Below are positions 33,220 through 55,000 of a stretch of DNA of 60,437 bases, in pieces. The position numbers and the translations under genes were made by a program. The stretch covers positions 1-60,437 of the forward strand of contig CANRNM010000001.1 in NCBI GenBank assembly GCA_947631975.1, written 5' to 3'. This DNA comes from an uncultured Clostridia bacterium. Its GTDB lineage: Bacteria; Bacillota; Clostridia; Lachnospirales; CAG-274. Below the pieces are notes generated by a model. The model saw only the letters and a program-made list of their open reading frames with translations, searched no databases and was not told where the DNA came from. Numbering within the stretch: the first letter of the stretch is position 1; every line of letters begins with the position of its first letter.

Positions 33220-33846
33220 TTATTCTTGAGTGATAGTTGTTTCGCTGTTTGTATGCTGCCTTCCTTCGTGGTCTATGTAATAGTTTTCTCTCAAAATAAG
33301 CTCGCTTACGGGCACTATTTCATAGCCCTTCTCCTTAAGACCCTTTATTATGGTATCAAGCACATCCGGAGTATATTTTGCGTCATTGTGAAAAAGTATT
33401 ATAGAGCCGTCTCCCAGATGCTTGTGATTGAGCACCTGATTTGTCTCATGCTCCGCTCCCAGCTCTTTCCAGTCTAAGCTGTCGATATCCCATTGTATCG
33501 GATAATATCCACATTCTTCCGCAGCCGTAAGCACCGTGTCATTGTATTCGCCGAACGGCGGACGGTATAATATGGGCTCCTCATTTATAAGCTCCTTTAT
33601 CTTATTGTGGCATTCCATAATATTCTTTTTGTTGTCCTCAAGGCTCAGCTGTGAACTGTGCGGGTGAGTGTTGCTGTGATTCCCCACATCGTGCCCGCTT
33701 TCGTATATCTTTTTGACCTCCTCGGGATATTTGTCCACCCAGTAACCGCAGAGGAAAAATGTCGCCTTGACATCATTCTTGTCTAAAATATCAAGTAATG
33801 TGTCCGTGTCCTCCGCTCCCCAAGGAGCAGGTAATATAAGAAGCAA
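33220..33846 (-). pseudogene. 3' fragment of a NodB-type polysaccharide deacetylase gene, cut by the island insertion
   Basis: Homology begins at ...WGAEDTDTLLDILDKNDVKATFF and includes HDVGNHSNTHPH, RPPFGEY and ILFHND. It has no signal/TM region, no NodB motif 1 and no ATG; the tracked start is a TTG inside the element arm. Confidence 0.8.
33813..33843. repeat. Left island junction: shared core CCGCTCCCCA plus a 20-bp terminal inverted-repeat arm
   Basis: The core at 33813-33822 is identical to 50480-50489 and 54793-54802. The arm GGAGCAGGTAATATAAGAAG (33824-33843) is the 18/20 reverse complement of CTTCTCATATTACCCGCTCC at the right junctions. Confidence 0.75.
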
Positions 33847-33860
33847 TTCATTAAAACGCC

Positions 33861-33904
33861 GAAAGCTATGGATTTATGCGGGCTTGCATAGAGCCATAGC
33901 TTTC
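33861..33904 (-). terminator. Hairpin terminating the six-gene minus-strand operon, just inside the island's left end
   Basis: A perfect 11-bp stem GAAAGCTATGG / CCATAGCTTTC with a 22-nt loop. The downstream T content on the minus strand is weak. Confidence 0.45.
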
Positions 33905-33958
33905 TTTGGATTTAATGTAATACAGGATGAAAAATCAATATTTTAGTATTATGAAAAA

Positions 33959-34339
33959 TTAATAATAACCTTCTGCGCCGAAAAGTATACTTTCAACATT
34001 ATTGTTGGGTGCGTAAATACCCACAGATGATTTTACGCTGATGTAGCTGTCATCTTTCTTTTCCAAATCCTTAAACATTTTTTTGGCATTTTCAATATTG
34101 GAAGGAAATACAAGAATATTGTCGACAACTACCTCTGCATCAAATATTTCTATTGCTTCGCATTTGTCATTTTCATCATAGAATACATGGCAGAAGCCAA
34201 AATCATCAGTTGTGTTTACGCTGTACTTTGACTTTTTAAACTCCTTTGCTTCGCCGAGTATCTGTCTTACTTCGGCTCTGTTCATTCCAAATTTTACGCC
34301 GTTGACTTCTTTTAATGGTATTGCTGTTATCTTATACAT
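33959..34339 (-). CDS. Putative immunity protein for the upstream toxin
   Basis: 126 aa, small and acidic. Its start overlaps the toxin stop (ATGTATAA) and GGAGGG lies upstream, the usual arrangement for toxin-immunity pairs. No family was recognised. Confidence 0.5.
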   Translation of the reverse strand: MYKITAIPLKEVNGVKFGMNRAEVRQILGEAKEFKKSKYSVNTTDDFGFCHVFYDENDKCEAIEIFDAEVVVDNILVFPSNIENAKKMFKDLEKKDDSYISVKSSVGIYAPNNNVESILFGAEGYY

Positions 34340-35270
34340 TTAATTTGCCCTCCGTTTCAATTTTATCAATGTATTCATTCATTTCATTTATTGCATCATC
34401 ATACTTGCTGCCAAATTTGTCATGTATATCGTCTATATCCATCTGAACGGCATCTCGGAACTTTCCCTGCTCTATAAGCTTCTTTTGCTCCGCCCTATAA
34501 TCACAGGCCTCTTTGGAACTGCCGCAGCTTGCAGTTTGTCTGTGGTCTTCTTTTTCCATTTTTATGGAAGGTCCGTCATTTTTTTCAAGAGGCGATATGC
34601 TGTCAGCGGGAATATGATGTACTTCATACTTATCGCCTTCACCTTCTTTGTATACATCACCGTAGCTTCCGCCGATTTTTTCAACATTCTCGGTAACCTT
34701 TGTATTTTCAAAAGCCTTTGTTGTTTTATCAATTGCATCAGATGTTTTCAAATCCTCCTGTGTTGGGGCTAATTCTCTGTTATCGCCCAAAAGTATGTTT
34801 TCAACATCTTTTGAAAAATCTCCTCGCTGAGGCATACTGCTGTTTTCCGGATTATTGATTATATCCTCCGGATTCAGCAGGTCTTTTACGGTATTAGCTA
34901 TTCCCCCTACAACATTAAGTGCAATAGCGTTTTCGGGATCATCCTTTGCCACATCTTCTTTAATTTCCTGCGCTGCGGCTCTTTCAATACCATCTGTAAG
35001 ATTTTTTATGTTATCACCTAAATCAGAATGGGAGTTTTCTATTCCTATAGTCTTTTTCAGAATCTCTTCCATAACGTTGGTTACAGAAACATTTTCAGGA
35101 TCATACTTAGCCATTTCATTTGTTATTCTCTGACCTCCTGTTTTAGCTATTTCTTTTACTCCTTTTTGTGCACATTCCTTTACACCTTCCTTTATAGCTT
35201 CATTAGTGCCTATTTCCGCCGTTATTTTAAGACCGGTAGCTATTATTGCATCATCAATTCCAAAAGCCAT
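34332..35270 (-). CDS. Putative toxin/effector: helical N-terminal region plus a C-terminal xHH (HNH/EndoVII-like) module
   Basis: The C-terminal ~110 aa contain YEVHHIPADS...KEDHRQTAS...YRAEQKKLIEQGKF, resembling the AHH/LHH/SHH nuclease toxin domains of polymorphic toxins. The ATG at 35270 is preferred over the tracked TTG at 35282. Confidence 0.5.
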   Translation of the reverse strand: MAFGIDDAIIATGLKITAEIGTNEAIKEGVKECAQKGVKEIAKTGGQRITNEMAKYDPENVSVTNVMEEILKKTIGIENSHSDLGDNIKNLTDGIERAAAQEIKEDVAKDDPENAIALNVVGGIANTVKDLLNPEDIINNPENSSMPQRGDFSKDVENILLGDNRELAPTQEDLKTSDAIDKTTKAFENTKVTENVEKIGGSYGDVYKEGEGDKYEVHHIPADSISPLEKNDGPSIKMEKEDHRQTASCGSSKEACDYRAEQKKLIEQGKFRDAVQMDIDDIHDKFGSKYDDAINEMNEYIDKIETEGKLNV

Positions 35271-35272
35271 AA

Positions 35273-38200
35273 TTAATGCCAACCTCCTTTTATATTATAG
35301 AAAAATTGCTCGCAGTTTTCAAGTCTTTTATTATCCAGACTTACCAGATTGCTGATAATTATTGCCAGAATAGCAGGACTTAAGCTATCTGTTTCATCTG
35401 TTTTTTCAATATTTGTATATAAGGCATCTTGCCACTTTTTATAGAAACTTGTATTTTCAGATTTTATTTTCAGTTTTTCCTTGTTATTTTCTATATCGGC
35501 CAATATTTCACCCATTTTATCATTAAAGCAAAGCTTGTATATCAGTTTTCCTTTCTGATTGATTGTAAGCTCAGCTTTATTGATTTTATAGGTTTCAAGC
35601 ATAAGCTTATAATTTATAGGAATATGCAGATTCATAATTTTTTCAGTTTCAAGCTCATCAATTTTTTCATAGTTATTTCTGAGCAATGCAAGAACTATAT
35701 CAGCAGAAGTCCTCTTGATATCTCCCATTTCATTTATAAGCTTGTCCCTGTAATTTGACATATTGGTATTGTCATTCGGTGTATCAGCCTTTTTTTCTGC
35801 CATTTTTACTTTACACAATACAGGGGATATCCATTCATTCTGATATATAACACCTACACCCTGACCGAGCCTTGGTATTTCATCAATCTGCTCATCGCTC
35901 AGATTTACGGATTTACCTACAAGCTCCCTGTCAGAATAATCGGGAAGGCTCATAATAATTTTTGTGTTTGTATTTCGTATAACAGACAGATCCAGCTTGC
36001 CCGGAGATTGGTCTGCTATTATAAAGCCTTCTCCGTATGTACGCATTTCGGCTATAGCGTTGGATATCATTTCAACAGATTTGCCGATAAGGTTTGAGCC
36101 TTCTGTATTCTGCTCATCGGATGTTCTCTTCAGCAGATTGTGGGCCTCCTCCAGCACTGTAATATGCTTAAGTTCCTTCTCTCCATTCTGACCGAAATAA
36201 TTTTCCTGAATTTTCATAACTATTACACCCATAATAAGAGCCTTAGTTTCTGCAGAGCCAACCTTACTGAGGTCAATTATGGTCGGGGCTTTTATTATCT
36301 CGTTGAAATCAATTTCTTTGTTTGAAAATACTACACCGTTGATTCCGTTTGTCAACGACCTTACTCTTGTAACCAAAGCTCCCTTATAGTTGCTCTTGTT
36401 TTCATCAGAGTAATCGGAACTGTCCATAACGATATGAAGCTGATTCAAAAGCTCCTGAAAGTCCGGGAATATATTACCATACCTGTTTTCGGAAAGCACT
36501 AGATCCCAACCTGCAGCCTCATAGGCTTTTTCCATAGCATCCTTCAGGACAGCAGGCATAGCGGCATACATAGGCCAACAAGCATTGAAGATTTCAACAA
36601 GTCTGTCTATATGCTCATTTACAAGAATTTTATCTGCAGGAAAGCTGAAAGGATTGATTTTTAACAGCTCAGCATCTCTGTAATTTGTACTGTATGTCTT
36701 TATATTTCCAATATCGCCGAATTCCTTTCTGTATTCTCCCTTTGCAGGTTCAACAACAAGAAATGGGATTCCTTTATTGTTTGCTTCTCTTAATATCTTA
36801 TATATGGTTGTAGATTTACCGGAGCCTGTAGAACCGGTAATAAATGTATGCCTTGTCAGGCTGTCGGCATTCAGATATACTTCTGTATTTTCCTCCTTGT
36901 GCATATGGTAAATGCTGCCAAGATTTAGTTTTTTGTTGTTCTCTTTTGTCAGATTGTCCTTCTCATATATATTTCGTTCAAAGGCTGCGCACTTCATACA
37001 GGTCAGACCTGCAACTGAGCTGTAGGGAAAAGCCATCATACTGGCAAGGTCGATAGATGACACATATGTTGTGGGAGTGATACACTCTATATCTGTGAGC
37101 TCGACTTTATCCTTATCCTTTTCATCAAATCTATTAACATCATCAGTATTAAAAAAAACAGGATGGGTAAAATGGCTTACAAAATCCCTTATATGTCTGA
37201 ATGTATTTTCTTTTGAGGCATTATCTCCGGTATCTGCCCATGTATTTATGACAGCAGCTTCGGTATAGGATTCATCTCCCTGCATAAGTCCCATATAATA
37301 ACCCGCAACCTTATTAGCGGTAAGGGAATTGTGAGCGAATATATATGACGCTTCTCTCCATGCGCCTACAGCCTCACATTCATTAAGCTTTTTAATATGC
37401 TCGTCTATTCTTTCCATAAGGTTTTTGACAGGGTATGAGGTGTATGTACGGGTCTCTCCTGTTGAGTTTTCTGTACCGATGCAATGATTTGAGCTATATC
37501 CTATGGACTTGCTGTTGCTTTCGCCCTCTACCTTTGTTTTGCTGTGTTGAAATCCGGCAGACAGACCGATAGAGCCCTGCTTACTCTTTGTTTTAACTAT
37601 GTCTTTTTTTATGGGATTAATAAGAGTTTTTATAAAAGCCCTAGCCCAACCCATACCGGTTGTTCCTCCGATAGGTGTAGATATTGAGTTTCCACTTGTA
37701 TAATTTGATCCGATAGAAAAACCGTTTGTCCTTGCAATAGAACTGTTTGTGCCATGGGTGTTTGTAAGAGAAGAACCATCTCCCCAGTTTTCACTTTTCC
37801 CCTTGGTTTCCGTGACCTGCCATTCCTTAAATTCTGAAACATTGGAGGCTATTTCCTCATAGCCGTTTCGTATATCCATAAGAGCTTCGTAGCTTATGGA
37901 CTCAGCCAATATCACAATAGTATATTCATTTTCTTCTTTTTCAGGCACAATACCATTCAATAATTTTTCTATTCCTTGACTCTTAAATTTTTCGGATTTT
38001 TCCGATGCAATATTGGTTATTACAGATACAACTTTTTTATCATTCAGTCCTGCAATATCCGAAGGGTCATCATGAAATTTTTCTGTTACTGTGCCCGGAA
38101 AATTTCCTTTTATTGTCGCTTCAAGCTTATTTATACCTTCTTCTGCTGCTTTGTGTCCACCGCCTGAATACATAGAATCATTTTTAAACACAAAATAAAA

Positions 38201-38533
38201 TTCTGCACCGGTGCAAAGCCTTTTTATTACCATAGCAATACTTTCACCGCTATTCATAAAAGAATTGTAAATGTTTTTAAATCTTTCTACAATATCCTCT
38301 TTTTCATCATATACCCAGCTTTTTATTCTTATTGCGCCTATATTATTATTACAGGTTACTCTTTTAAATTTTTTTATTTTATTCTCTTCCTTTTTTTCAT
38401 AGGTATTATAGGTGTTAAAATCAGCCACAGTATAACTATTCTCTAAATTATGAATGTTAAATTTGTAAACAGAGCTGCGTATTACATCCAAATTACTGTT
38501 TATTTTTGCAAGATTTGTATTTTTATCTGCCAT
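35273..38533 (-). CDS. 1086-aa protein: unrecognised ~550-aa N-terminal half plus a HerA/FtsK-superfamily (DUF87-like) P-loop ATPase
   Basis: Walker A FITGSTGSGKSTT, Walker B HITVLEEAHNLL, and FIIADQSPGKLDLSVIRNTNTKIIMSLPDYSDRE, a HerA-type motif set. The N-terminal half includes a G/S/T/N-rich stretch and no motif I recognise. Confidence 0.7.
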   Translation of the reverse strand: MADKNTNLAKINSNLDVIRSSVYKFNIHNLENSYTVADFNTYNTYEKKEENKIKKFKRVTCNNNIGAIRIKSWVYDEKEDIVERFKNIYNSFMNSGESIAMVIKRLCTGAEFYFVFKNDSMYSGGGHKAAEEGINKLEATIKGNFPGTVTEKFHDDPSDIAGLNDKKVVSVITNIASEKSEKFKSQGIEKLLNGIVPEKEENEYTIVILAESISYEALMDIRNGYEEIASNVSEFKEWQVTETKGKSENWGDGSSLTNTHGTNSSIARTNGFSIGSNYTSGNSISTPIGGTTGMGWARAFIKTLINPIKKDIVKTKSKQGSIGLSAGFQHSKTKVEGESNSKSIGYSSNHCIGTENSTGETRTYTSYPVKNLMERIDEHIKKLNECEAVGAWREASYIFAHNSLTANKVAGYYMGLMQGDESYTEAAVINTWADTGDNASKENTFRHIRDFVSHFTHPVFFNTDDVNRFDEKDKDKVELTDIECITPTTYVSSIDLASMMAFPYSSVAGLTCMKCAAFERNIYEKDNLTKENNKKLNLGSIYHMHKEENTEVYLNADSLTRHTFITGSTGSGKSTTIYKILREANNKGIPFLVVEPAKGEYRKEFGDIGNIKTYSTNYRDAELLKINPFSFPADKILVNEHIDRLVEIFNACWPMYAAMPAVLKDAMEKAYEAAGWDLVLSENRYGNIFPDFQELLNQLHIVMDSSDYSDENKSNYKGALVTRVRSLTNGINGVVFSNKEIDFNEIIKAPTIIDLSKVGSAETKALIMGVIVMKIQENYFGQNGEKELKHITVLEEAHNLLKRTSDEQNTEGSNLIGKSVEMISNAIAEMRTYGEGFIIADQSPGKLDLSVIRNTNTKIIMSLPDYSDRELVGKSVNLSDEQIDEIPRLGQGVGVIYQNEWISPVLCKVKMAEKKADTPNDNTNMSNYRDKLINEMGDIKRTSADIVLALLRNNYEKIDELETEKIMNLHIPINYKLMLETYKINKAELTINQKGKLIYKLCFNDKMGEILADIENNKEKLKIKSENTSFYKKWQDALYTNIEKTDETDSLSPAILAIIISNLVSLDNKRLENCEQFFYNIKGGWH

Positions 38534-38557
38534 AACTGTATTCTCCTTGTTTATTGT

Positions 38558-38929
38558 TTATAATCTTAAGAATAATAAAATAATCAGTATGAGCATAAAA
38601 ACAGCTATTATTATCTTATAAATCGAACTGACAATTTTTTTGTTCCTTAATTTATTACATACTAAATATAAATGTTTGATATAATCGGCGCTTATATCTC
38701 CCAGAGCAATTCCGTTTAAAATATGATTTACATATTGCTTGTCCCATTCGTTTTCGGATTTGACCTTAATATTAGAGTCTCTTTGTATTTTGTTTTGTTT
38801 TACCAGAAGATCTAAAAGACCGCAGAGCTCTTCATAGGAAATTTCACCGTTGCTGATGTCGTGGCATAGATCCAATATACCCTCGCTTAAAGTTACATCA
38901 TTAAAATACTTTTTATATAGATCTGTCAT
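38558..38929 (-). CDS. Small tail-anchored membrane protein
   Basis: 123 aa, soluble and helical at the N-terminus, with a single C-terminal hydrophobic helix IYKIIIAVFMLILIILLFL. It lies between the GTPase and ATPase genes. Confidence 0.6.
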   Translation of the reverse strand: MTDLYKKYFNDVTLSEGILDLCHDISNGEISYEELCGLLDLLVKQNKIQRDSNIKVKSENEWDKQYVNHILNGIALGDISADYIKHLYLVCNKLRNKKIVSSIYKIIIAVFMLILIILLFLRL

Positions 38930-38977
38930 AGTGCATTCCTCCTATATAAATATGTGTTGTTAAAAAGATAAAAATAT

Positions 38978-41395
38978 TTATTCAGATACAGAGATCCCCC
39001 ATATTTTGTTATTTAGTTCCTCGGATTTCTTATCAATTTCAGTAAGTATATTTTCATACATTTGAATATCTTTTTGAAGTTTATCTTTATTTTCTGCGTA
39101 TTGTTTTAATTCTCCGGAAAATGTTTTTAAATCTTCTTTAGATTGTTCATGTATTTTGTTCAAAGCATCCAGGTATATATCATTTATATTGTTTTTAAAT
39201 GCAGAAAAATATCTATCCATTAGTTTCCTGTATCCTTTTAAAACATTATTTTTGTATTTTTTTCTGTCTACAAAAATAAACCATTTTCTGACATCTTGCA
39301 AATCAGGATATGATATTTGTTCAGGATATTGTGGATTATAATAAGTAATCAATTTGCCCCAATGATCTTCAGATATGTTAGCTCTAATTATATTATGAAT
39401 TTTATTATTTATATTACTTATTTTATCATCAATAATGTCTTTCCTTGTTTCATTATACTTTTCATTAATCTCATCAACATATTTTTCTATTTTCTTTAAT
39501 ATTTTCTCTGAATTTTTTTCATATCCTATTGCTATACGCGGTATTTTTTTGTCTAAAAATTTATCAAATTCTTCTGTCTTTGAGTCAAAAAATAAATGTA
39601 AACCATCTAAATCAATAATATATTTGTCAGAATTGTTTATTTTCTTTTCTTTTTCAAATAATGAGTCTAATTCACCAATTAGTTTATTTTCTACATAATT
39701 GGCCATTCTTTCTATGTTTGACTTATCTTCTGTGCTTATACTTTTTTTACTTTCATACTCGTTTTTAGCCAATTCTATAATTTTATTGGCACTGTCATAA
39801 ATAATATTTGCCTTTACGGAAAGTGCATATTTTACAGCGTAGTTTTTAATTTCATCTTCTAAGGCAAACATACCGGAATTGATAAAAGTTTCCCTATGGA
39901 TATCATTTTCTCTATGGGCACTTTCAGCTTCTTCTTCGCATTTGTTTTTAAGTTTGATGGTCGCATTTTCTGCTTCGGCAAGTTTATTAAATCTATAATA
40001 TTTTCCGCTGCCGTCATTATGCTCATTATTGACAGTCGGATAGAGCCTGTTCTTGTTTCTCTCATCGTTTTGGGTATTTAGTCCCTTTTTCATGATACGG
40101 CTTGTATATGCCGCAAGAGCAGACACAAACAACAGCCTTTCTTTTGAAAGATCTATTGTTGTTTTGTTGCCTGTTGTTGGTTCTTTAAACTCTATTTGTC
40201 TGTTTTTTAGTTCTTTAATATCTTCATCTATGTTATTTATCTCATCTGTCCTGTTTATAACATGGATAGATCTTGAGATATCAATAGAGGTGTTGTTTTC
40301 ATCTTTGTTGTTTTTAAAATTTGTTATAATATTATATAATAAATTATTTCCGGAGCCTTCTGTTTTTGTTGGGTGATAAACTACAACAAGTATGGAATGA
40401 GTTTGCTTTTTCAGAGCGTTTTCAAGTATCTCGGAATGTTCATCCGAATTGCTGTCGGTACCTGGAGTGTCATATATAACAAAATTGTATTTATCATTAC
40501 ATATATCCATAGGGTAAAAAACGGTTACTACATTATCAATGTATTCGTCATTATTTTGGTCAAGTTTATTTGGCATATCATTAATATATTTTAATATATG
40601 ACATACATGCTGATAACGATACTTACTGTGAAAATTATTTGTTGCTTCGGTAATATGGCTGAGTAATTTAGAGTTTTTTAACTGACTTTCAATTATAAAT
40701 TTATTGTTTTTTCCTGACCATATAAGCTTAACACTGTTTTTTGTCAAATCTTTTCTGATATCAAAACATATACGGACTTCTTTTTTTGAATTTATTATTT
40801 TTGTAATCTTGCCTGTTTCAGATATGGTCGATTCCGGCAAAATAGCCTCTCCTATTAAAGTATTTATGAGTGTGGATTTTCCGGAACTATATACTCCAAC
40901 GAAGCATATATTTACATCATTTTCAGAAAACTCACCGATCATTTTATTAAGCCTATTCTTTGTTCTGTCATATTTTGTGCCTTTTTTATTAAGATCGAAG
41001 TCATCAAAATATTTTATGATATCGCCATAAAAATGACGTATGTCTTGATATATATTCTCAACATCAGGCAATTTTATAAAATCTTCTTTAAGATTTATAA
41101 GGTTTTGATGTTTACTGTCGTTATAAAATTTTACCATGTTTTTAAAATCCTCATAGTCTGCCGCAGTTCCTCTATATGTAATATCCATCGGATTTCCGTT
41201 ATTATAATTAATTATTGCTTGAAAAAAATCATTTCCTTCATTTTGAAGCAAAAAATCGCCTGTTTTGTTTATATATTCTTCCAGTTCACCGCTGTACTTT
41301 GAACGTATCTCTTGCCAGTTTTCGTTGTTCTTTTCAGAAAAAATCACCTGTTTTTTTACCGGATGATAGGTAACTAAAATTTCATTGGATGACAT
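38978..41395 (-). CDS. Dynamin-like large GTPase (bacterial dynamin-like protein family)
   Basis: G1 GVYSSGKSTLIN, G3 VIYDTPGTD and G4-like INRTDE, preceded by a ~150-aa N-terminal domain and followed by a ~400-aa K/E/N-rich helical stalk. Confidence 0.7.
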   Translation of the reverse strand: MSSNEILVTYHPVKKQVIFSEKNNENWQEIRSKYSGELEEYINKTGDFLLQNEGNDFFQAIINYNNGNPMDITYRGTAADYEDFKNMVKFYNDSKHQNLINLKEDFIKLPDVENIYQDIRHFYGDIIKYFDDFDLNKKGTKYDRTKNRLNKMIGEFSENDVNICFVGVYSSGKSTLINTLIGEAILPESTISETGKITKIINSKKEVRICFDIRKDLTKNSVKLIWSGKNNKFIIESQLKNSKLLSHITEATNNFHSKYRYQHVCHILKYINDMPNKLDQNNDEYIDNVVTVFYPMDICNDKYNFVIYDTPGTDSNSDEHSEILENALKKQTHSILVVVYHPTKTEGSGNNLLYNIITNFKNNKDENNTSIDISRSIHVINRTDEINNIDEDIKELKNRQIEFKEPTTGNKTTIDLSKERLLFVSALAAYTSRIMKKGLNTQNDERNKNRLYPTVNNEHNDGSGKYYRFNKLAEAENATIKLKNKCEEEAESAHRENDIHRETFINSGMFALEDEIKNYAVKYALSVKANIIYDSANKIIELAKNEYESKKSISTEDKSNIERMANYVENKLIGELDSLFEKEKKINNSDKYIIDLDGLHLFFDSKTEEFDKFLDKKIPRIAIGYEKNSEKILKKIEKYVDEINEKYNETRKDIIDDKISNINNKIHNIIRANISEDHWGKLITYYNPQYPEQISYPDLQDVRKWFIFVDRKKYKNNVLKGYRKLMDRYFSAFKNNINDIYLDALNKIHEQSKEDLKTFSGELKQYAENKDKLQKDIQMYENILTEIDKKSEELNNKIWGISVSE

Positions 41396-46818: not shown

Positions 46819-47940
46819 ATGAATATTTTTGTACTTGGTAATGGTTTTGATATTGCTCATGGTTTGCCTACAACATATATTGATTTTATGAAATTTATAG
46901 ATATGGCAGAGGAAATAATTAGTAAAAGCTATGTGGATGATATGAATTTTACAGATATCTTGAATCCAAGTGCTATAGATGATAAATTAATGGAGCATTT
47001 AAAAGGAGGTGGAATAAATTATTTGTTATCAATAAAAGAAGATTTTATGAATTATTATAATAATAATTTTTGGATAAATTATTTTAAAAATAGATTAAAA
47101 AATACTGAAAACAAATTAGGCGAGACTTGGATAGATTTTGAAAGTATAATATCATATGTTATTAAAGGCTTTGATTACAGTGGAGAGAGGGGCTTTATAT
47201 CATTAAGGGAATATGACCCTGATTTATATAACTTCGTAAATTTAAATATTCCGATAAAAAAAGTTAAATTTAAAGGTGTTAAAGCAATTCTTATCAAGGA
47301 TTTAGAAAATTTAATTAATTTGTTGGAAATTTATTTACATGATTTTATTGGTGAACTTAAAGTGGAAGTTATTTCTCCTGATATTAAGGAATTACAAATC
47401 GGAGGCGTATTGTCATTTAACTACACTGAAACATACAAAAAATTATATGACAGTAGGAATGATATAGAATATAGCTACATTCATGGTAAAGTCAGAGAAA
47501 ACAGTTTAACCGATAATAACATGGTTTTAGGAATAGATGAATATTTGAATGATGCTGAAAGAAATATCAATATTGATTATATGGAGTTCAAAAAATATTT
47601 TCAAAGAATATATAAAAAAACAGGTTCATCATATAAAGATTGGTTAGAACCAGTGGTGATGGATGGGAATTGTTATATGTATTTTTGGGGACATTCTTTA
47701 GATATTACAGATAAAGACATTATACGAGAATTAATTTTAAATAAATGGCATAAAAAAATAATATTTTATCATAACAAAGAAACCCTAAAAAAACTAATAG
47801 GAAATTTAATTAAAGTTATTGGACAGGATAACCTTATTAAATTGACGGGAGATCCTGATCCAAATATAGAGTTTAGATTGCAAAAAGCAATGGAAAAAAA
47901 CACTAAACATACAAGTTCGTGTTCTTCTGTTTGTTCCTGA
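46819..47940 (+). CDS. AbiH-family abortive-infection protein
   Basis: The N-terminus MNIFVLGNGFDIAHGLPTTYIDF matches the characteristic GNGFDlahGl.T.Y.dF start of the AbiH family. Length is 373 aa. Confidence 0.65.
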   Translation: MNIFVLGNGFDIAHGLPTTYIDFMKFIDMAEEIISKSYVDDMNFTDILNPSAIDDKLMEHLKGGGINYLLSIKEDFMNYYNNNFWINYFKNRLKNTENKLGETWIDFESIISYVIKGFDYSGERGFISLREYDPDLYNFVNLNIPIKKVKFKGVKAILIKDLENLINLLEIYLHDFIGELKVEVISPDIKELQIGGVLSFNYTETYKKLYDSRNDIEYSYIHGKVRENSLTDNNMVLGIDEYLNDAERNINIDYMEFKKYFQRIYKKTGSSYKDWLEPVVMDGNCYMYFWGHSLDITDKDIIRELILNKWHKKIIFYHNKETLKKLIGNLIKVIGQDNLIKLTGDPDPNIEFRLQKAMEKNTKHTSSCSSVCS

Positions 47941-47982
47941 TAATATGAATAATAAAATTTATATGTCTACAAAAAAAATTAA

Positions 47983-48028
47983 AATCAGGATTATTTGGTA
48001 TATTTAAGCCGAATAATCCTGATTTATA
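47983..48028 (+). terminator. Intrinsic terminator after the AbiH gene
   Basis: A 13-bp stem AATCAGGATTATT / AATAATCCTGATT with a 16-nt loop, followed by TTATATT. Confidence 0.5.
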
Positions 48029-48132
48029 TTGTCTTTCATATAAGTTTTGCCAAATTATAGCAGATAATATTTTCATTTTTTATTGACAATACATCGGCAA
48101 ACCGATATAATAATATTATGGAGGTGAAAACT

Positions 48133-48717
48133 ATGTATCTGAATGATTTGATATACGAAAGAGGAATTACAAAATACAGATTATCAAAAGAAAGCGGAGT
48201 TCCCCAAACCACCATTATTGACATATGTAGTGAAAAATCCAAAATTAAAAATTGCGCTGCCGGTACTCTTTATAAAATAGCAAAAGCCTTAAATATATCA
48301 ATGGAAAGTCTTATAGCCAAAGAAGTCAATAAAAACGATATTCCTCACAGAAGTTCCTTTGAGGTTTTTAAAAGTAATGTTTGTCATCTTGTAAAAGACA
48401 AGGGCGATGTTGAATTTATTATAGATACGCTTTCTTCCGACGAAATAAGGACGCTGTATAACAGAAGGTGGTATGCAGAGGCATTTTATATGCTTGCCAT
48501 GATAGATTATCTTTCAAGAGAAAACAGTATTCCTATTTGCACTAATTACAATGACATTCGCTCTCAAAAACTAAAGGATATGATATATCCATCAAGCGCT
48601 GTGATCTCTGACGCGGCAATGAATACAACAAAACATTGCGAAGAATGTCTTAAAAATGCTATACCAGAATTTTTGAGATTTAATATAGTGGAAGGTGAGA
48701 TAAGAAATGTCTGCTGA
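48133..48717 (+). CDS. XRE-family HTH protein with an uncharacterised C-terminal domain (antitoxin-like)
   Basis: The ATG at 48133 has GGAGGTG 6 nt upstream. The N-terminal HTH reads ITKYRLSKESGVPQTTIIDICSEKSKIKNCAAGTLYKIAKALNISMESL. Its stop overlaps a truncated downstream ORF. Confidence 0.6.
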   Translation: MYLNDLIYERGITKYRLSKESGVPQTTIIDICSEKSKIKNCAAGTLYKIAKALNISMESLIAKEVNKNDIPHRSSFEVFKSNVCHLVKDKGDVEFIIDTLSSDEIRTLYNRRWYAEAFYMLAMIDYLSRENSIPICTNYNDIRSQKLKDMIYPSSAVISDAAMNTTKHCEECLKNAIPEFLRFNIVEGEIRNVC

Positions 48718-48761
48718 TACGATATTTACGAAAGACGATCTGAATATGTGTCTAAGAAAGC

Positions 48762-48989
48762 TTGCAGAGAAATTTTGCTAGCGCAATGGGACAACTAATA
48801 GATAAAATGCCTACCCTAAAATCGGGAGAATGCTTATTAATAGGGGATGCAGTTATTATCCTATCTATAGTTAAAATCGAAGAGTGTAATCCTAAACCAT
48901 CTTCCAATGATATTCCATATTTAGAGCTTTGGGAAAAAGAATGGTATGATCTTGATATTCAAGCAATAGTGGATAATTGGAGACAATAG
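48762..48989 (+). pseudogene. C-terminal remnant of a HerA/DUF87-type ATPase gene
   Basis: MPTLKSGECLLIGDAVIILSIVKIEECNPKPSSNDIPYLELW resembles the extreme C-terminus of HerA-like defence ATPases (L..GEali.G.av..P..v.i......P.S.D). No P-loop part is present upstream. Confidence 0.45.
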
Positions 48990-49012
48990 TAATAGCAAAA
49001 AGGAGTGTTAAT

Positions 49013-49765
49013 TTGGATATTGAAAGAACAAAACAAATAAAGTATCTTTTGTTAAGGTGTAAATCGTTAAAAGAAAACATGATTAGGACGCTTAAAGATA
49101 GCTCCACAAACGAAATAGGAAGATACTCTTCTTTTAGAACGTACGCTGAGGAACATGGTTTTTTAGCTTGTGAAGTCTGCAAGGCTTTAGAATTAAACAA
49201 CGAAAGAATTCTATATTATGATACAAGGAAAATGAAAGGATGGGCTGATACAGTTTGGGCTCAGCAAAAAGAAATTATTGATAGTTTGGTTGTATACACA
49301 GATACATTGATTGCTCTTTTAGAAAAGGAAATTGATTTTATAGACGATGAGTATACTAATTTGGAAAACTTCATAAAGAACAAATTAAGAAGCACCATCT
49401 TTACTATTCCAGAAAAAGAGAAAGAAGTACAAAATGCTATTGAAACTCTATTTGTTGGTAAAGGCTGGAATAAAGGAATAGATTATGATAGAGAAACTGG
49501 TAAGTTCGAGTTTTCAGGCAAGGAGTATATTCCTGATTTTATAGTACCTAAATTAAACTTATGTATTGAAGTGAAGCTATTGAAAGAAGGAAGAAAATCA
49601 AAAATTATTGAAGAAATCAATGCCGATATAACAGCTTATGATAAAGAATATAAGCGTCAGCTTTTCGTTGTATATGATCTTGGTGGTATACGAGATGAAA
49701 TTGAATTCAAACGAGATATAGAAAATGCTAAAGATGATATCAAAGTAATAATAGTAAAACATTAA
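49013..49765 (+). CDS. PD-(D/E)xK-like nuclease-fold protein
   Basis: The C-terminal part has YIPDFIVPKLNLCIEVKLLKEG (a D...E.K arrangement) and FVVYDLGG. The TTG start at 49013 has AAGGAG 7 nt upstream; the tracked start is 48977. Confidence 0.4.
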   Translation: MDIERTKQIKYLLLRCKSLKENMIRTLKDSSTNEIGRYSSFRTYAEEHGFLACEVCKALELNNERILYYDTRKMKGWADTVWAQQKEIIDSLVVYTDTLIALLEKEIDFIDDEYTNLENFIKNKLRSTIFTIPEKEKEVQNAIETLFVGKGWNKGIDYDRETGKFEFSGKEYIPDFIVPKLNLCIEVKLLKEGRKSKIIEEINADITAYDKEYKRQLFVVYDLGGIRDEIEFKRDIENAKDDIKVIIVKH

Positions 49766-50426
49766 TAGTTTCTGTATGTTTGGGATATAAATAACTGGCT
49801 GCACCCGAAAGCACAGCCGTAAATACTCAAATATAAACCATACACTTAACACTGCTTCTGCCTTGACTAGCCTATCAAGGGCGGCTCTGTATGCTCTGTC
49901 TGTGTTCTCAATCTCGGTCAGGTGGAACAGATCATAGGCATAAAGTTTATTGAGAATATTTCTTCTTATAATAGATTATATCCATTTGGCAGTGGGAGGG
50001 GAATCACCTCTCCTCACTACAATCATTATATTTTTTATTATCTGAATACCGACGAGATTGTCAAGTCCGCTGGATTAACAGCTTTTCAACAAAGTTGAGA
50101 CAAGTTACGCTAAAACTTGAAATTCACAGCAAGAACATTTGCTCTGAATTGCAGATTTTATTGCATTTTCGACGTTTTTGAAAAAATGGTAAAAATAAGC
50201 GAAACGATATTGCTTAGATCTGTACGAAAATTATCGAAATAGTGAAATTGCAGCAAAAGATACTTTAATCGATTTTGAAGCCAAGTACCCCGATGTTACA
50301 AATATAGACAACGTCAATGACATTATTAACAGTTTAAAGAAAAGACAAAAAAATTAAAGAAAAATTTTTTAAAAGTTAAATAGCTTTAATACAAATACCA
50401 ATATCAATATCCGCAAATAGGCTTAT

Positions 50427-50687
50427 TCATCGTATCTCTACTGAATAAGCCTGTTTAAAATTATTCCTTCTCATATTACCCGCTCCCCATTCTGCGTCAA
50501 AGCTTATAGCCACCTGTGGTTTTCCCTGTGTGTCCACGCAGTATATTGGCAGTTTTTTCTTAGCGGCGGACGTTTCTATGCTTTGAGTATCTCTTATAGT
50601 CTTTATCCCGCCGACAGTAAAAGCAAAAACCGTAATAATAACTAAAGCCAATAACGTGGGCTTTTTTCTTTTAAGGAAATTTTTCAT
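50427..50687 (-). pseudogene. 5' fragment of a polysaccharide deacetylase gene, copy 1, reading into an element arm
   Basis: MKNFLKRKKPTLLALVIITVFAFTVGG...PQVAISFDAEWGA is followed by out-of-gene sequence. It differs from copy 2 at 15 of 75 residues. Confidence 0.75.
50467..50489. repeat. Inner right junction: terminal arm CTTCTCATATTACCCGCTCC plus core CCGCTCCCCA
   Basis: It is identical over 23 nt to 54780-54802. The arm is the inverted partner of 33824-33843. Confidence 0.75.
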
Positions 50688-50923
50688 TAAAACACCTCCT
50701 TATAAAGGATATGACTTTAGCAGAAAATTTATAAATTTTTGTTCTGTTATATTTGAGATGTAAGCCGGAGAATAATATCGCTGAATCGTTTGTATATGCA
50801 CAAAATAAGTTGTTTATTTTAGCCAAGTCAAATGTAAAAATTGAATTATATATGGAAATATGCTATGATTTGTTTAAAACAATAAAAGTCGGATATGCTT
50901 TGACATTTTTACAGAGGTATTTT

Positions 50924-53773
50924 ATGGTGAATGAAATTGAAAAGCTTAAAGCAGAAATAACGAAATTAAAAAACGAAATTGAACGGCTGCGCAAAATACT
51001 TGACAATGCCGGTATTGAATATGATATTAAAAACGACAATAAAATATCAAGTGAAGTTATAACAAAAGAGCATATTTTTCTTTTTTATTCCTATTTCAAG
51101 GGAAGGAAGGATGTTTACAGCAGGCGAACGGTACGAAAAGACGGTAAAGCGGCTTATTACCCCGTATGCGATAATTTTTGGAAATACGGGATATGTCCCA
51201 GATGTGAGCAGAGGAAAACGAAATGTTCAGAGTGTGAACACAGGAAATGGACTCCGCTGACGCAAAGTGCAATATATGGTCATCTTATGGGGCGAAAGGC
51301 AAATTGCAGCGATGTGATAGGCATATATCCTATGCTTGAAGGAGATAAATGTAATTTCCTTGTTTTTGATTTTGATGATCACAGCGATGTAGATACAGGG
51401 ACAGAATGGGCAGAAGAAGTAAATACAATGAGAAAAATATGCGAAGATAACGACGTAGATATTCTTGTGGAAAGATCACGGTCGAGCAAGGGTGCGCATA
51501 TATGGATGTTTTTCGAAGAGCCCATAAGTGCGGCAAAGGCAAGAAAATTTGGTACTGCATTACTGACAAAAGGCGCAGAAACCGTAAATATGAAAAGCTT
51601 TACATATTACGATCGTATGATACCTGCTCAGGATCATCTGACCGAGGGCGGACTGGGAAATCTTATTGCTCTGCCTTTACAGGGACAGGCTCTTAAGAAA
51701 GGCAACAGCGCCTTTGTAGATGAAAACTGGGAGGTTTATGAGGATCAATGGGAAATTTTGAAAAATACCAAAAAATTATCATTAGATTTTGTGGAAGAAA
51801 AAATTTCTCTATGGAGTGAAAAAGCTGTATCGGATAATTCAGACGGTAAGCCGTGGGATATTAAAATAGATAAAAGGGATGCCGAGGGCTGTGTTGAAAT
51901 CACTCTTGCCGATAAGATATATATAAACAAAACTAATTTAAAACCAAGACTTCAGAACAGTATAAGAAGGCTTGCTGCTTTTGGCAATCCCGAATTTTAT
52001 AAAAATCAAGCCATGGGCTTTTCCGTGTTCAATTGTCCAAGGATCATATATTGCGGAGAGGATATAGACAATTATATTGCAATACCAAGAGGTTGTTTTG
52101 AAGAAATAAAGGCGTTGTTAAATAAAGCGGATATTGAAATAAAAATAGCAGATGAAAGGAATACAGGAAATAACATAAATGTAAAATTTAAAGGCAAGCT
52201 TTATTCCGAACAGCAAAAAGCGGCAGAAACTATGCTTAAATATGACTGCGGAATTTTAGGCGCGGCGACAGCCTTTGGAAAAACCGTAGTCGGCACATAT
52301 ATAATAGCGCAGAAAAAAGTCAACACGCTTATTTTGGTGCACAACAGGGAAATTATGAACAATTGGACAGAGGACATCAATAATTTCCTCGCAATCAATG
52401 AAAAGCTGCCTGAATATAAGACCAAAACAGGTCGTATAAGAAAAAGAAAGAGCCTTATAGGGAAAATATATGCGGGTCATAATTCTTTGACGGGTATAAT
52501 TGATGTTGCGATGATATCATCTCTGGGGAAACCCGAGGCAATAAGTGATATAGTCAAAAATTATGGTATGGTCATAATGGATGAATGTCATCATGGCGGC
52601 GCGGTAACGGCAGAGGCTGTTTTAAGGGAAGTAAATGCAAAATATGTTTATGGAATGACTGCTACTCCAAAGCGAAATGACGGTCATGAAAAGAGAGTCT
52701 ATATGCAGCTGGGGAATGTCAGATATAAATTTACGGCTCAGGAAAAAGCAGAGCTTCAGAATATTGATCATTATATATATCCGCGTTTTACAAGCCTTGT
52801 CAATATGGGGAAGGAATGGAATATAAATGAAGCCTACAAGGCAGTTATTACAAATGAGATAAGAAACAAAATGATTATTAATGACGCTGCTAAATGTATT
52901 GAGAATAAAAGAACACCATTGATAATCACAAAATTTAGAGAACATGCAGAACTTTTGAAAAATATACTTGAAGGCACAGCCGATAATATTTTTTTGCTGC
53001 AGGGAGGAAGAGGAAATAAGGAAAGAGAAAACATAAGGACAATGCTTCGGAATGTTCCCAAGACTGAAACGCTTATCGTAGTGGCAACAGGGCAATATAT
53101 AGGCGAGGGCTTTAATTTGCCAAGACTCGATACTATGCTTTTGGCAACACCTATAGCATGGTCGGGAAATGTTGAGCAATATGCAGGACGTCTCCACAGA
53201 GACTATGAAGGCAAGAAAGACGTTATCATTTATGACTATATCGACAATCATGTCCGCGTCCTTGAAAGAATGTATTATAAAAGGCTGAAGACCTATAAAA
53301 ATATGGGATATGAAATATATAATAATACATATGCCGAAAAACAAAAAGTCGGTTCTATATTTGACAGTAAAAGTTACGGTGAAATATTTGAAAGAGATAT
53401 TTACGAGTCAAATAAGGAAATAATAATATCAAGTCCGGGCATTAACAGTAAAAAGGTCGATAATTTTTGCAAAATAGTTGCCGAAAAGCAGAAAGACGGT
53501 ATACAAATTTGCGTTTTAACATTGTCCCCTGAAATCTATCCCGAAAAAATAAAGGATATTACAACGAATTTAATAAATAAACTGGAAGAAAAGGGCATAA
53601 GCGTAATATGTAAAGACAGCCTCCATGAGCATTTTGCTGTTATCGACAAAGAGATTGTATGGTATGGCAGCATGAACTTTCTGTCGAGAGAAAAGGAGGA
53701 AGACAATATAATGCGAGTTGTGAATAAGGAGATAGCAGAAGAACTTATGCTTATAACATATAATTGCAAGTGA
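50924..53773 (+). CDS. Fusion protein: archaeo-eukaryotic primase-polymerase (AEP) domain + SF2 (ResIII/DExH) helicase + C-terminal PLD-like domain
   Basis: The ATG at 50924 has AGAGG upstream. AEP domain: GRKDVY, Cys cluster CDNFWKYGICPRC...CSEC, VFDFDDH, SRSSKGAHIWMFF and GNLIALPLQG. Helicase: AATAFGKTVVG, MDECHH, MTATPKR and QYAGRLHR. PLD-like domain: HEHFAVIDKEIVWYGSMN. Confidence 0.75.
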   Translation: MVNEIEKLKAEITKLKNEIERLRKILDNAGIEYDIKNDNKISSEVITKEHIFLFYSYFKGRKDVYSRRTVRKDGKAAYYPVCDNFWKYGICPRCEQRKTKCSECEHRKWTPLTQSAIYGHLMGRKANCSDVIGIYPMLEGDKCNFLVFDFDDHSDVDTGTEWAEEVNTMRKICEDNDVDILVERSRSSKGAHIWMFFEEPISAAKARKFGTALLTKGAETVNMKSFTYYDRMIPAQDHLTEGGLGNLIALPLQGQALKKGNSAFVDENWEVYEDQWEILKNTKKLSLDFVEEKISLWSEKAVSDNSDGKPWDIKIDKRDAEGCVEITLADKIYINKTNLKPRLQNSIRRLAAFGNPEFYKNQAMGFSVFNCPRIIYCGEDIDNYIAIPRGCFEEIKALLNKADIEIKIADERNTGNNINVKFKGKLYSEQQKAAETMLKYDCGILGAATAFGKTVVGTYIIAQKKVNTLILVHNREIMNNWTEDINNFLAINEKLPEYKTKTGRIRKRKSLIGKIYAGHNSLTGIIDVAMISSLGKPEAISDIVKNYGMVIMDECHHGGAVTAEAVLREVNAKYVYGMTATPKRNDGHEKRVYMQLGNVRYKFTAQEKAELQNIDHYIYPRFTSLVNMGKEWNINEAYKAVITNEIRNKMIINDAAKCIENKRTPLIITKFREHAELLKNILEGTADNIFLLQGGRGNKERENIRTMLRNVPKTETLIVVATGQYIGEGFNLPRLDTMLLATPIAWSGNVEQYAGRLHRDYEGKKDVIIYDYIDNHVRVLERMYYKRLKTYKNMGYEIYNNTYAEKQKVGSIFDSKSYGEIFERDIYESNKEIIISSPGINSKKVDNFCKIVAEKQKDGIQICVLTLSPEIYPEKIKDITTNLINKLEEKGISVICKDSLHEHFAVIDKEIVWYGSMNFLSREKEEDNIMRVVNKEIAEELMLITYNCK

Positions 53774-53967
53774 GATAAAATTTATGAAAAAGCAATAGTT
53801 GTTTTAGAAAAAATTTTATCTATTCGTATAATCATATAATGTGAAGGGATAGTACCTGCAAATTGCGGCATTGAGAAACGATAATTTTGTGGTGTAATAA
53901 TTTATTTGAATTTTATGCAGCAGCGTAATATAATTATTTTAAAAAATATGAAAGGGTGTAATTTGAC

Positions 53968-54240
53968 ATGACAAACGAAGCTATATTGAGCAGCGAAAAA
54001 GACTATACAATATTCAGGTTCAATAACCATGTGATTCGTTTTAAATCTCCTTATTCTCTTGAAAAATATACTGAAATAAAAGAATGGGATGCAGGATATA
54101 TTGTAGTCATGGCAAAATATTTACACAACTCCGAAGAAGAGGAAGAGTATATAGATCTAGTGCTGATCCTGAGAAAATTGTATTATGATGTTGAAAGATT
54201 TTTAAAGCCTATAAAGAAGGTGAGGATATCTTATGATTGA
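53968..54240 (+). CDS. Hypothetical 90-aa protein
   Basis: It is an intact ORF with an A/G-rich region upstream (GAAAGGG). No motif was recognised. Confidence 0.35.
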   Translation: MTNEAILSSEKDYTIFRFNNHVIRFKSPYSLEKYTEIKEWDAGYIVVMAKYLHNSEEEEEYIDLVLILRKLYYDVERFLKPIKKVRISYD

Positions 54241-54772
54241 TATAGAAAAAACAGCCGACAATGCCGATATGATAATCAATGGCTATGCATATACTCAAAA
54301 CGGTGACGAAATTCAGGTTTTGAATCTGAATAATCAGTTGTACTTAATAAGACAGGTGAGGTTATGGAAACCAATATGGAAGATATAGAGATTGATATTG
54401 TCAAATCATATTTTGACAATAACCGTGATCTTATGGAGAATTAGTATGCCTAAATATTACGAATACAAAATTGCAGGATATTGTCCTGTATTTTACATCT
54501 CATTGTATTATTGAATGTATGCGTGTTCATGCCAATGACAGGAAGCTTACGGAAGCAGGTTCTGCAAAATTTTTTTGTCAAAGCAAATGATGATACGATA
54601 TTACAAAATCGTGGTATACTCAATGACAGGGAAATTGCTAAAAAACAAGCATTTATAAAGAAAAATTACAAAGAAATGTATCTTAAATGGCTTGAATACA
54701 GTAAAAATGCTTTTTATGAAGATAACTAGATCATATTGAAGTTTTGCTGCAAGATACCAGTTGATATTTAAA

Positions 54773-55000
54773 TCAATTCCTTCTCATATTACCCGCTCCC
54801 CATGCCGCGTCAAAGCTTATAGCCACCTGCGGTTTTCCCTGTGTGTCCACACAGTATATCGGCAGTTTTTTCTTTGCTGCGGAAGTCGCAACGCTTTGAG
54901 TATCCCTTATCGTACTTATCCCACCAACCGTAAGAGCAAATACGGCAATTGCAAAAACAGCCCATAGGGTTTGTTTTTTGCGTTTAAATATTTTGTGCAT
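54773..55000 (-). pseudogene. 5' fragment of the polysaccharide deacetylase gene, copy 2 (outer junction)
   Basis: MHKIFKRKKQTLWAVFAIAVFALTVGG...PQVAISFDAAWGA joins in frame with the 3' fragment at 33822 across the shared core. An RBS (AGGAGG) lies upstream at about 55010. Confidence 0.8.
54780..54802. repeat. Outer right junction: terminal arm plus core CCGCTCCCCA
   Basis: CTTCTCATATTACCCGCTCC (54780-54799) and core (54793-54802). See the left junction at 33813-33843. Confidence 0.75.

Follow-up and report, generated by a model that had tools for sequence, protein, structure and literature searches.

Several sporulation genes are split by elements that bring their own serine recombinase and are restored by precise excision, namely sigK by skin (SpoIVCA with Skr, and CD1231 with CD1234), spsM by SPbeta (SprA with SprB), and yabG by yin (PMC4191935, PMC5025042, PMC10747680). 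A further case is gin, a non-phage element in the mother-cell sporulation gene gerE of Bacillus cereus, which encodes the large serine recombinase GirC together with GirX, a 42-aa protein without known motif, and whose excision by GirC and GirX has been shown during sporulation (PMC5595907). Here we describe a comparable arrangement in a window of 60,437 nucleotides (the whole stretch of DNA that was analyzed; contig CANRNM010000001.1 of assembly GCA_947631975.1) from an uncultured Clostridia bacterium of the Lachnospirales, in which an island of 20,980 bp (33823-54802) splits the gene for a PdaB-like polysaccharide deacetylase. With a probability of roughly 0.55, we read it as a reversible, skin/gin-like site-specific genomic island of an undescribed family in gut Clostridia, for which we infer excision in the mother cell. 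In silico, the island has two features of an intervening element: its own site-specific recombinase, and an open reading frame (ORF) that is rebuilt by its precise deletion.

Both gene fragments lie on the minus strand. The 3' fragment (33220-33822) encodes residues 67-266 and the stop codon of a NodB-family deacetylase, and the ORF in which it is found (33220-33846) includes eight extra residues encoded by the element (LLLILPAP). The 5' fragment, here termed N (54803-55076), comprises a coding piece (54803-55000, ATG at 55000) for residues 1-66, with a transmembrane anchor, and an upstream region bearing TTTATAAA-14 nt-CATATTCT, which is found also upstream of a second 5' fragment within the island (N', below). 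This TTTATAAA-14-CATATyCT arrangement upstream of the target gene may be sigma-E-like; conservation of the promoter across species is unconvincing beyond the near relatives of the window. Deletion of 33823-54802 yields a 266-codon minus-strand ORF that reads ...VAISFDAAWGA/EDTDTLLDIL... across the joint. The rebuilt protein has 7,929 homologues, of which the best intact ones are 261-281 aa long and 72-79% identical at 93-100% query coverage, and in the alignment with intact homologues the joint shows neither a gap nor an added residue. The joint falls within NodB catalytic motif 1, where A65, W67, G68, A69, D71, T72, and D73 are invariant in the alignment and FDAAWG is present in 118/118 intact homologues. 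The sequence-only reading had proposed that the two fragments are halves of one gene, restored in frame to about 267 aa; the restored frame has 266 codons and aligns gap-free, and an origin of the fragments from different paralogues is contradicted by this seamless alignment to orthologues and by the unoccupied sites described below (L002 and L095).

Among NCBIfam models, the best match of the rebuilt protein is PdaB (TIGR02764; 217.4 bits, against a cut-off of 237.4), with YlxY at 149 and PdaA at 136 bits, and its homologues carry the Joint Genome Institute name PdaB. Since the equivalog cut-off is missed, the gene is named PdaB-like only. The Bacillus subtilis gene pdaB (spoVIE) is a member of the mother-cell regulon of sigma-E, and its disruption by a transposon leaves sporulation at 5% (PMC4703394). 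In the literature searched, neither a deacetylase gene in general nor pdaB in particular is described as the target of an integrating or intervening element.

The ends of the island have the form expected at the sites of large serine recombinases, with a dyad-symmetric attP, a less symmetric attB, and a short core around a non-palindromic dinucleotide. As the sequence-only reading had stated, the core CCGCTCCCCA stands at both junctions (33813-33822 and 54793-54802) and the adjoining arms GGAGCAGGTAATATAAGAAG (33824-33843) and CTTCTCATATTACCCGCTCC (54780-54799) are reverse complements at 18/20 positions; the symmetry in fact reaches further, the P and P' half-sites agreeing at 22/26 positions when compared outward from the dyad centre around TG. 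A chance origin of these repeats is excluded by the number of occurrences in the window, which is 2 against 0.00 expected for the 23-mer CTTCTCATATTACCCGCTCCCCA and 3 against 0.01 expected for the 20-nt half-site motif GGAGCRGGTAATATRAGAAG. A scan with the half-site motif found no further copy between the outer attR and the window end at 60,437. The attL site (33797-33848) consists of a host half-site (33797-33820), the crossover CA (33821-33822), and the P' half-site of the element (33823-33848), and the outer attR (54775-54828) of the P half-site (54775-54800), CA (54801-54802), and the second host half-site (54803-54828). On the coding strand, attB is GCTTTGACGCGGCA-TG-GGGAGCGGAGGACACGGAC and attP, as rebuilt, is TATATTACCTGCTCCT-TG-GGGAGCGGGTAATATGAG. 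The palindrome that the joined ends had been predicted to form is, in these terms, a dyad-symmetric attP-like site centred on a dinucleotide within the shared core. Because this TG, the first two bases of the 10-bp core, is the non-palindromic dyad centre of attP, the crossover is probably the TG of the Trp67 codon (CA on the plus strand at 33821-22, 50488-89, and 54801-02). The host half-sites are less symmetric than attP, with common proximal bases at 8/8 and 4/8 positions. Three lineages of the element differ in their arms (GGAGCnGGTAATATnAGAAG, GGAGCAGGTAGnTGGnGAA, and GGGnGCGGGCAnA..GAAGCA), and within each of them both arms agree at 17-22/26 positions; symmetry that is kept despite sequence change between lineages is a signature of functional half-sites. 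The junction sequences expected from these sites are GCTTTGACGCGGCATGGGGAGCGGAGGACACGGAC for the empty site, CTTCTTATATTACCTGCTCCTTGGGGAGCGGGTAATATGAGAAG for the circle, and ...GACGCAGAATGGGGAGCGGAGGAC... for the product of an inner excision. The reported drop in GC content exactly at the left junction holds (0.455 across 1-33219, then ∼0.33, with 0.327-0.349 within the island), but the right junction shows no recovery, with 0.37 over 55077-60437.

A large serine recombinase gene had also been placed inside the island, and it is indeed present (45005-46597, plus strand), encoding a 530-aa protein with Resolvase, Recombinase, Zn_ribbon_recom, and DUF4368 domains (PF00239 over residues 7-158 at 83 bits; PF07508 at 86 bits and PF13408 at 49.5 bits, both over their cut-offs). 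R11 and S13 (YCRLS) are invariant across 28 members of its clade, whose sequences are 50-97% identical to it, and its nearest solved relative is the catalytic domain of TnpX (2mhc, E 3e-17). With scores far under the cut-offs of the Ccr models (CcrB 111.9 bits vs 900, CcrC 98.6 vs 900), it is not a Ccr. We scanned loci with related recombinases in one-genome-per-species contigs and metagenome contigs (loci are given below by L numbers), locating deacetylase fragments by tblastn with the rebuilt protein. Recombinases 59-97% identical to that of the window occur in 33 loci, from rabbit and human gut Clostridia, Lachnospirales, Eubacteriaceae, and Eubacterium sp. CAG:274, and in essentially all of these with enough flank the recombinase adjoins a deacetylase fragment bounded at residues 58-69; tblastn found no such fragment adjoining the recombinase in the ∼57 loci with recombinases at most 46% identical. 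The break lies at residues 65-69 in ∼30 independent contigs with recombinases of the 59-97% group. The attL junction of the window (the MLLILPAPWGA... fusion) recurs in L001 and L003, and two proteins (P0020 and P0046) start with MLLILPAPWGADDTD, the same element-to-gene fusion, in host genes 93% and 84% identical to that of the window. Elements with both ends on a single contig are 5.9 kb (L013), ∼9-10.7 kb (L021, L027, L028, and L030), and 17.6 kb (L029) long. This association with the same gene position across contigs supports the recombinase at 45005-46597 as the likely integration agent, and its integration at the FDAAWGA codons of the deacetylase gene appears very highly probable.

The search for unoccupied sites in related genomes was successful. 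The nearest relative of the target gene of the window, in L002, has the empty site GACGCCGCCTGGGGAGCGGAGGACACGGAC, and the gene in L095 is likewise unoccupied. The product of the latter (P0028) shares 98.9% identity with that of the rebuilt L027 gene, whose allele is interrupted, and the 5' side and flank of the two loci are 97.6% identical in nucleotides, so that both allele states coexist in one species. The search for the circle junction with the pattern ACCYGCTCCTTGGGGAGYGGGTAAT gave 0 matches in metagenome and viral contig collections, a result that is uninformative because the pattern demands an exact match and covers window-like and L005-like elements only.

Comparison of the elements revealed nothing in common among ORFs of at least 40 aa apart from the recombinase. 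When the regions upstream of the recombinase were lined up, however, an unannotated ORF of 36 codons emerged (44861-44971, plus strand; MTDKKSNFRVKTNYGNKLFADCLLNAIKASSDKIAG), which has its own Shine-Dalgarno sequence and ends 33 nt before the recombinase ATG, and in most loci 24-40 nt before the recombinase start. A hidden Markov model (HMM) built from ten of these peptides matches all 31/31 family loci with sequence upstream of the recombinase (30 loci at 56-72 bits, and L012, where the ORF is cut by the contig end, at 26.7 bits) and has no match in the loci of the distant recombinases. The recombinase and this ORF are the only genes common to all elements. The peptides match no Pfam or NCBIfam family and show no match to TnpW, and among 1.84 billion representative proteins only three called proteins, of 34-38 aa, match them. 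Given the precedent of GirX in gin for a tiny directionality factor of 42 aa (PMC5595907), we propose the 36-aa protein as a candidate recombination directionality factor or accessory protein.

On the reading given at the outset, the recombinase would recombine the dyad-symmetric attP with attB in the FDAAWGA codons, splitting the deacetylase gene, and the same recombinase, probably helped by the 36-aa protein, would recombine attL with the outer attR to give back the exact 266-aa gene. By analogy with skin, SPbeta, gin, and yin, the most likely setting for excision would be the mother cell during sporulation; the spore gene would remain usable while the germ line retains the island.

The deacetylase gene is also broken at a second position in four loci, in NodB motif 4 after TGGGATGTNGA (WDVD/S; residues ∼181-182), at 590-720 in L002, 13980-14110 in L013, 7855-7985 in L026, and 3371-3500 in L035. 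In L026 and L035, this second site holds a different and unrelated serine integrase of 491 aa with helix-turn-helix (HTH), ImmA, RecT, and DUF1351 prophage genes, and a tape-measure-like ORF (L002) or a reverse-transcriptase ORF (L013) lies beside the break in the other two. As L026 is occupied at both sites, its deacetylase gene is in three pieces. Separately from the island, the window contains another large serine recombinase gene (∼15425-16880, within 14887-16900 on the minus strand), the frame of which is open from ∼16880 and includes AAAYIRVSTDEQ, and which has no canonical start codon, possibly beginning with ATA after AGGGAGG. There is a 50-nt overlap between it and a cotJC-like manganese (Mn) catalase ORF (14887-15474) in which ..FITEYSKRQS stands in place of the first ∼27 residues; homologues of full length begin with MFIYEKKLEFPVKI...TQFGGPDGE and lie within the cotJA-cotJB-cotJC operons of relatives. 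The missing 5' part of this gene is absent from the window, and the same junction is present in L096 (from the sample of L002), again by tsaE and tsaB.

The island is composite. The core recurs a third time, together with a perfect P-type arm, at 50467-50489, in a stretch identical to 54780-54802, and the perfect 23-nt arm together with an adjoining homologous fragment of 265 nt rules out a chance match. This internal attR' (50462-50515) consists of a P half-site (50462-50487), CA (50488-50489), and a host-type half-site with two changes beside the crossover (TTCTGC for TGCCGC). Next to it lies the second 5' gene fragment, N' (50490-50763, minus strand), with residues 1-66, an ATG at 50687, a Shine-Dalgarno sequence, and ∼75 nt of upstream region, which is ∼82-85% identical to 54803-55076. 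The order in the window is the 3' fragment, attL, an inner element of 16,667 bp (E_A, 33823-50489, GC content 0.327) with P' arm, recombination module, and P arm, attR', N' with its promoter, a TOTE segment of ∼4 kb that has neither a recombinase nor a P' arm (E_B, 50753-54729, plus strand), the outer attR, and N.

With two attR sites, the assignment of the functional pair has to be weighed, as excision at either leaves an open frame of 266 codons. If attL and attR' were the active pair, only 33823-50489 would move, giving a chimeric gene of N' and the 3' fragment under the control of the imported promoter and leaving the TOTE segment and the outer N as dead remnants. The internal P arm and core are the same as the outer copy over 27 nt, the joined frame would have its own Shine-Dalgarno sequence and promoter-like region, and the inner element holds a complete recombination module, all of which would suit such an event. 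N', however, reads FDAEWG where N retains the FDAAWG of all 118 intact homologues, and is for this reason probably a relic; the host-type half-site of attR' departs from the expected sequence at two positions right beside the crossover; and N' is more distant from L002 (77.5% identity) than are N (82.3%) and the 3' fragment (83.6%), which makes the latter two look like the native pair. Movement of the inner element alone is accordingly judged improbable, and N' is read, from these comparisons, as a putative foreign relic beside a native, functional outer pair, which is also the pair picked by the sequence-only reading. The composite could have arisen by any of three routes: a block of donor chromosome was imported, a cassette integrated in Campbell fashion, or an imprecise excision was followed by a deletion. 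The one with the fewest steps is the second, in which a recombinase-less cassette with its own 5' gene copy integrates and regenerates attB, which the 16.7-kb element then occupies; it fits because N and the 3' fragment look native and N' foreign, although no second example of a recombinase-less cassette with a 5' gene copy was seen among the family loci scanned. A chimeric assembly, or fragments of different paralogues, could in principle produce a similar picture, since the window is probably a metagenome-type assembly and its proteins had no match in an exact look-up. The same junction sequences nevertheless occur in independent rabbit-gut, human-gut, and Logan-run assemblies, intact single-copy homologues match the rebuilt protein along its full length, and the half-sites are statistically unique, and an artefact is hardly credible as an explanation.

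A weightier alternative is that the deacetylase gene is simply a landing pad: the gene would be knocked out, the codons of the motif would serve as conserved DNA for a wide host range, excision would serve horizontal transfer only, and the host would rely on paralogous deacetylases or not on the gene at all. Large serine integrases commonly use sites within conserved genes, and the coexistence of occupied and empty alleles within one species is what a polymorphic mobile element would show. In L032, moreover, the interrupted copy is frameshifted by a single-T deletion in a T run just past the junction (∼8250-8273; WGAEDTDTCWIY*), although coverage there is 2.8x and the change may be either a sequencing error or a real pseudogene. 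Against the loss of the gene stand the state of the fragments, which are intact ORFs in nearly all of ∼30 interrupted copies, with the outer N retaining the motif that the unused N' has lost, and the pattern of substitution. Pairwise comparison of six interrupted alleles of the CAG:274 type gave a synonymous divergence (dS) of 0.06-0.23, a non-synonymous divergence (dN) of at most 0.007, and dN/dS of 0.00-0.08, with 18 synonymous and 1 non-synonymous change between L011 and L027, and up to 22 synonymous vs 0-3 non-synonymous differences across interrupted alleles. The element core beside these alleles has itself diverged by 0.1-1.7%, which means that the elements are not fresh identical insertions. 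The ratios favour continued selection on the interrupted gene, which needs precise excision, and are in this respect supportive, not decisive. In addition, two unrelated integrase families on one gene, and a third recombinase in the cotJC-like gene, are typical of sporulation genes, the convergence of several integrases on spore genes being the pattern for sigK, spsM, spoVFB, gerE, and yabG (PMC10747680). A plain landing-pad insertion is on balance a serious possibility, though at odds well below even.

Several observations weigh against reversible, mother-cell excision as well. The low dN/dS could stem from recombination with uninterrupted alleles or from repeated recent insertion, and the excised circle or attP junction, searched as an exact pattern, is absent from the metagenome and viral contig collections. 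The PdaB score of the rebuilt protein is 20 bits under the trusted cut-off. The recombinase of the window is antiparallel to the target gene, and no convincing conserved sporulation-type promoter was found upstream of the 36-aa ORF and recombinase, as the landing-pad view would have it; a CATA-type -10 element is present there in 6/9 lineages, the window not among them, and a TTGACA box takes its place in the CAG:274 lineage. If the integrase and a directionality factor were transcribed together, favoured integration after transfer would be hard to explain, and TnpX/TndX-type relatives are not known to need such a factor. Finally, the AT-rich right flank and the presence of its Fic and ATPase genes inside the L004 element leave the right end, and hence the native 5' fragment, not fully certain. 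Regarding transcription, no sigma-70-type site was read upstream of the 36-aa ORF either, and L022 has the 5' fragment, the 36-aa ORF, and the recombinase in succession on one strand within 60 nt, a layout that could allow the last two to be expressed from the promoter of the target gene. Taken by its parts, the reading preferred here is somewhat firmer on the persisting reversibility of the insertion and continued use of the gene, which we consider reasonably probable, than on the restriction of excision to the mother cell, which is tentative and a little short of even odds.

The cargo of the island is dominated by defence-related genes, as assigned by Pfam for 16 island ORFs (all of at least 120 aa and several shorter ones) and by PADLOC for ten of them. 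The left module (33959-42401, minus strand) comprises two ORFs with no assigned function (33959-34339 and 34332-35282), a HerA/DUF87-type ATPase of 1086 aa (35273-38533), another such ORF of 123 aa (38558-38929), a dynamin/LeoA-like GTPase of 805 aa (38978-41395), and a WYL-domain regulator (41451-42401). A similar module (WYL, GTPases, and DUF87 ATPase) adjoins the same junction in L001. It is followed on the plus strand by a 359-aa ORF without assignment (42682-43761), which is 94% identical to an ORF in L004, and, beyond the recombination module, by the right cargo of E_A (46819-49765, plus strand), with AbiH (46819-47940; 131.7 bits), an HTH protein (48118-48717), and a protein with a DpnII/MboI-like restriction endonuclease domain (48977-49765). 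E_B carries, on the plus strand, a 1006-aa fusion of a TOTE-type archaeo-eukaryotic primase (AEP), a helicase, and a phospholipase D-type (PLD) nuclease (50753-53773; AEP-TOTE 285.8 bits), and DUF7724 (53968-54240) with small ORFs nearby. The clustering of AbiH, the TOTE fusion, the HerA-type ATPase, the LeoA-like dynamin, WYL, and the restriction endonuclease-like domain marks the island, by predicted function, as a putative defence island. None of the 16 ORFs scanned with Pfam is a capsid, tail, terminase, or lysis gene, and with these structural genes missing and phage integrases at most 34% identical to the recombinase, a phage origin was ruled out.

Among relatives, the cargo includes Cas9-cas1-cas2-csn2 (L011), DUF6079, DUF4160/DUF2442, Fic, an HD-domain protein, and LtrA. 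The L011 locus (11907-17936 on scaffold FR888508.1 of Eubacterium sp. CAG:274) is a complete type II CRISPR-Cas locus, comprising a 1356-aa Cas9 and, after it, ORFs of the size of cas1, cas2, and csn2, and stands directly after the recombinase inside the deacetylase-splitting element. In strains of the CAG:274 type, the module next to attL and the recombinase is 98.3-99.9% identical, and the DNA on the far side of the recombinase is unrelated between strains; a constant core with unrelated far-side cargo indicates that a fixed integration module carries defence genes that can be exchanged. Two observations concern the middle of the window island. The ends of two contigs of the rabbit metagenome-assembled genome (MAG), L001 and L004, meet at 42439-42639, in the stretch that separates the WYL gene from the 359-aa ORF, and L001 matches there in both orientations, which suggests an inverted repeat or an assembly break point. 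L004 also has an ORF of 642 aa, absent from the window, that separates the 359-aa ORF from the recombinase module.

To the right of the island are a 201-aa ORF without assignment, a Fic gene (57037-58080), and an AAA_14/DUF4143 ATPase gene (58198-59484). The segment with the latter two (57033-59620) is 92% identical to DNA of L004 (from the same rabbit-gut MAG as L001) located 0.8 kb downstream of a 97%-identical recombinase, and in L010 a Fic homologue lies between recombinase and attR. Foreign DNA may thus continue beyond the window end. An exact look-up of the 431- and 428-aa ATPase of the window, by which the contig might be followed past 60,437, returned no record, and two repeats (D4 and D10; 58761-58785 and 59555-59587) were judged chance matches in AT-rich DNA. 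The left flank is, over 1-14850, ordinary chromosome, with the 3' part of purL (109-2349), a pectinesterase-like protein of 1399 aa, and the type IV pilus genes PilC/GspF (8694-9899), PilB/GspE (11986-13776), and PilT-like (13795-14850).

If the reading is correct, the PdaB-like deacetylase gene would join sigK, spsM, spoVFB, spoVR, gerE, and yabG as a sporulation gene subject to DNA rearrangement, and the phenomenon, so far described for Bacillus and pathogenic clostridia, would include uncultured Lachnospirales and Eubacteriaceae of the gut. Intervening elements could in that case be carriers of defence systems and not phage relics, and annotations such as "truncated deacetylase" or "truncated Mn-catalase" in gut MAGs may denote split genes instead of pseudogenes. 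The recombinase, its 36-aa partner, and the natural attB, attP, attL, and attR variants with covarying half-sites would also provide a compact serine-integrase toolkit for genome engineering. A bolder proposal would be that gut Clostridia park exchangeable defence islands, including a complete Cas9 system, in mother-cell sporulation genes, from which the recombinase and the 36-aa protein (in that role the shortest directionality factor on record) excise them only in the terminal mother cell, restoring the gene in the cell that needs it and passing the island on through the spore, with prophages using the second site and the split cotJC as part of a general developmental rearrangement network; as a whole, we regard this as unlikely.

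Among described systems, gin is the closest: it shares with the window island the absence of phage character, a target that is here a presumed mother-cell sporulation gene, and the pairing of a large serine recombinase with a very small protein, and it likewise has a short shared core with flanking inverted repeats and was described as a composite of mobile elements (PMC5595907). The gin element, however, targets gerE with demonstrated excision, while the element described here targets a PdaB-like gene and its excision is predicted; its family also differs in carrying defence systems, in occurring in many Clostridia lineages, and in ranging from 6 to >20 kb. Skin, SPbeta, and yin are likewise serine-recombinase elements, and lie in sporulation genes, but are prophages or prophage relics, whereas the window island has no phage genes among the ORFs scanned; their directionality factors are of 53-72 aa and under sporulation sigma factors, whereas the candidate here has 36 aa and the recombinase is antiparallel to the gene. 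L022, by comparison, agrees with skin (spoIVCA) and yin in that the 5' gene fragment is closely followed by a recombinase gene of the same orientation.

The composite structure recalls islands of the SCCmec type (Ccr at rlmH/orfX), which also form tandem cassettes at one site, with repeated att copies, some sub-elements without a recombinase, and alternative excision units, and the recombinase matches the NCBIfam CcrB and CcrC models weakly. In SCC, the site is at the 3' end of a gene that stays intact and the repeat is of ∼18 bp, whereas the repeat unit in the window is a 198-nt 5' gene fragment with its promoter, apparently imported from another host. TnpX and TndX (of Tn4451 and Tn5397) are, like the window recombinase, clostridial and have a DUF4368 C-terminal domain, and they include its closest solved relative; Tn4451 and Tn5397 insert at many GA-centred sites, whereas the clade described here is tied to one gene position and has distinct attP- and attB-type half-sites. 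Pipolins similarly combine a conserved integration module with fast-exchanged defence cargo (PMC11551731), but their module is a tyrosine recombinase or PolB module at tRNA genes, in place of a serine recombinase at a probable sporulation gene. Set against these systems, a serine-recombinase element that interrupts a sporulation gene is known, and the target gene and the element family are new; what is unusual here is the defence cargo, the 36-aa partner ORF, the target gene with two sites, and the internal relic junction.

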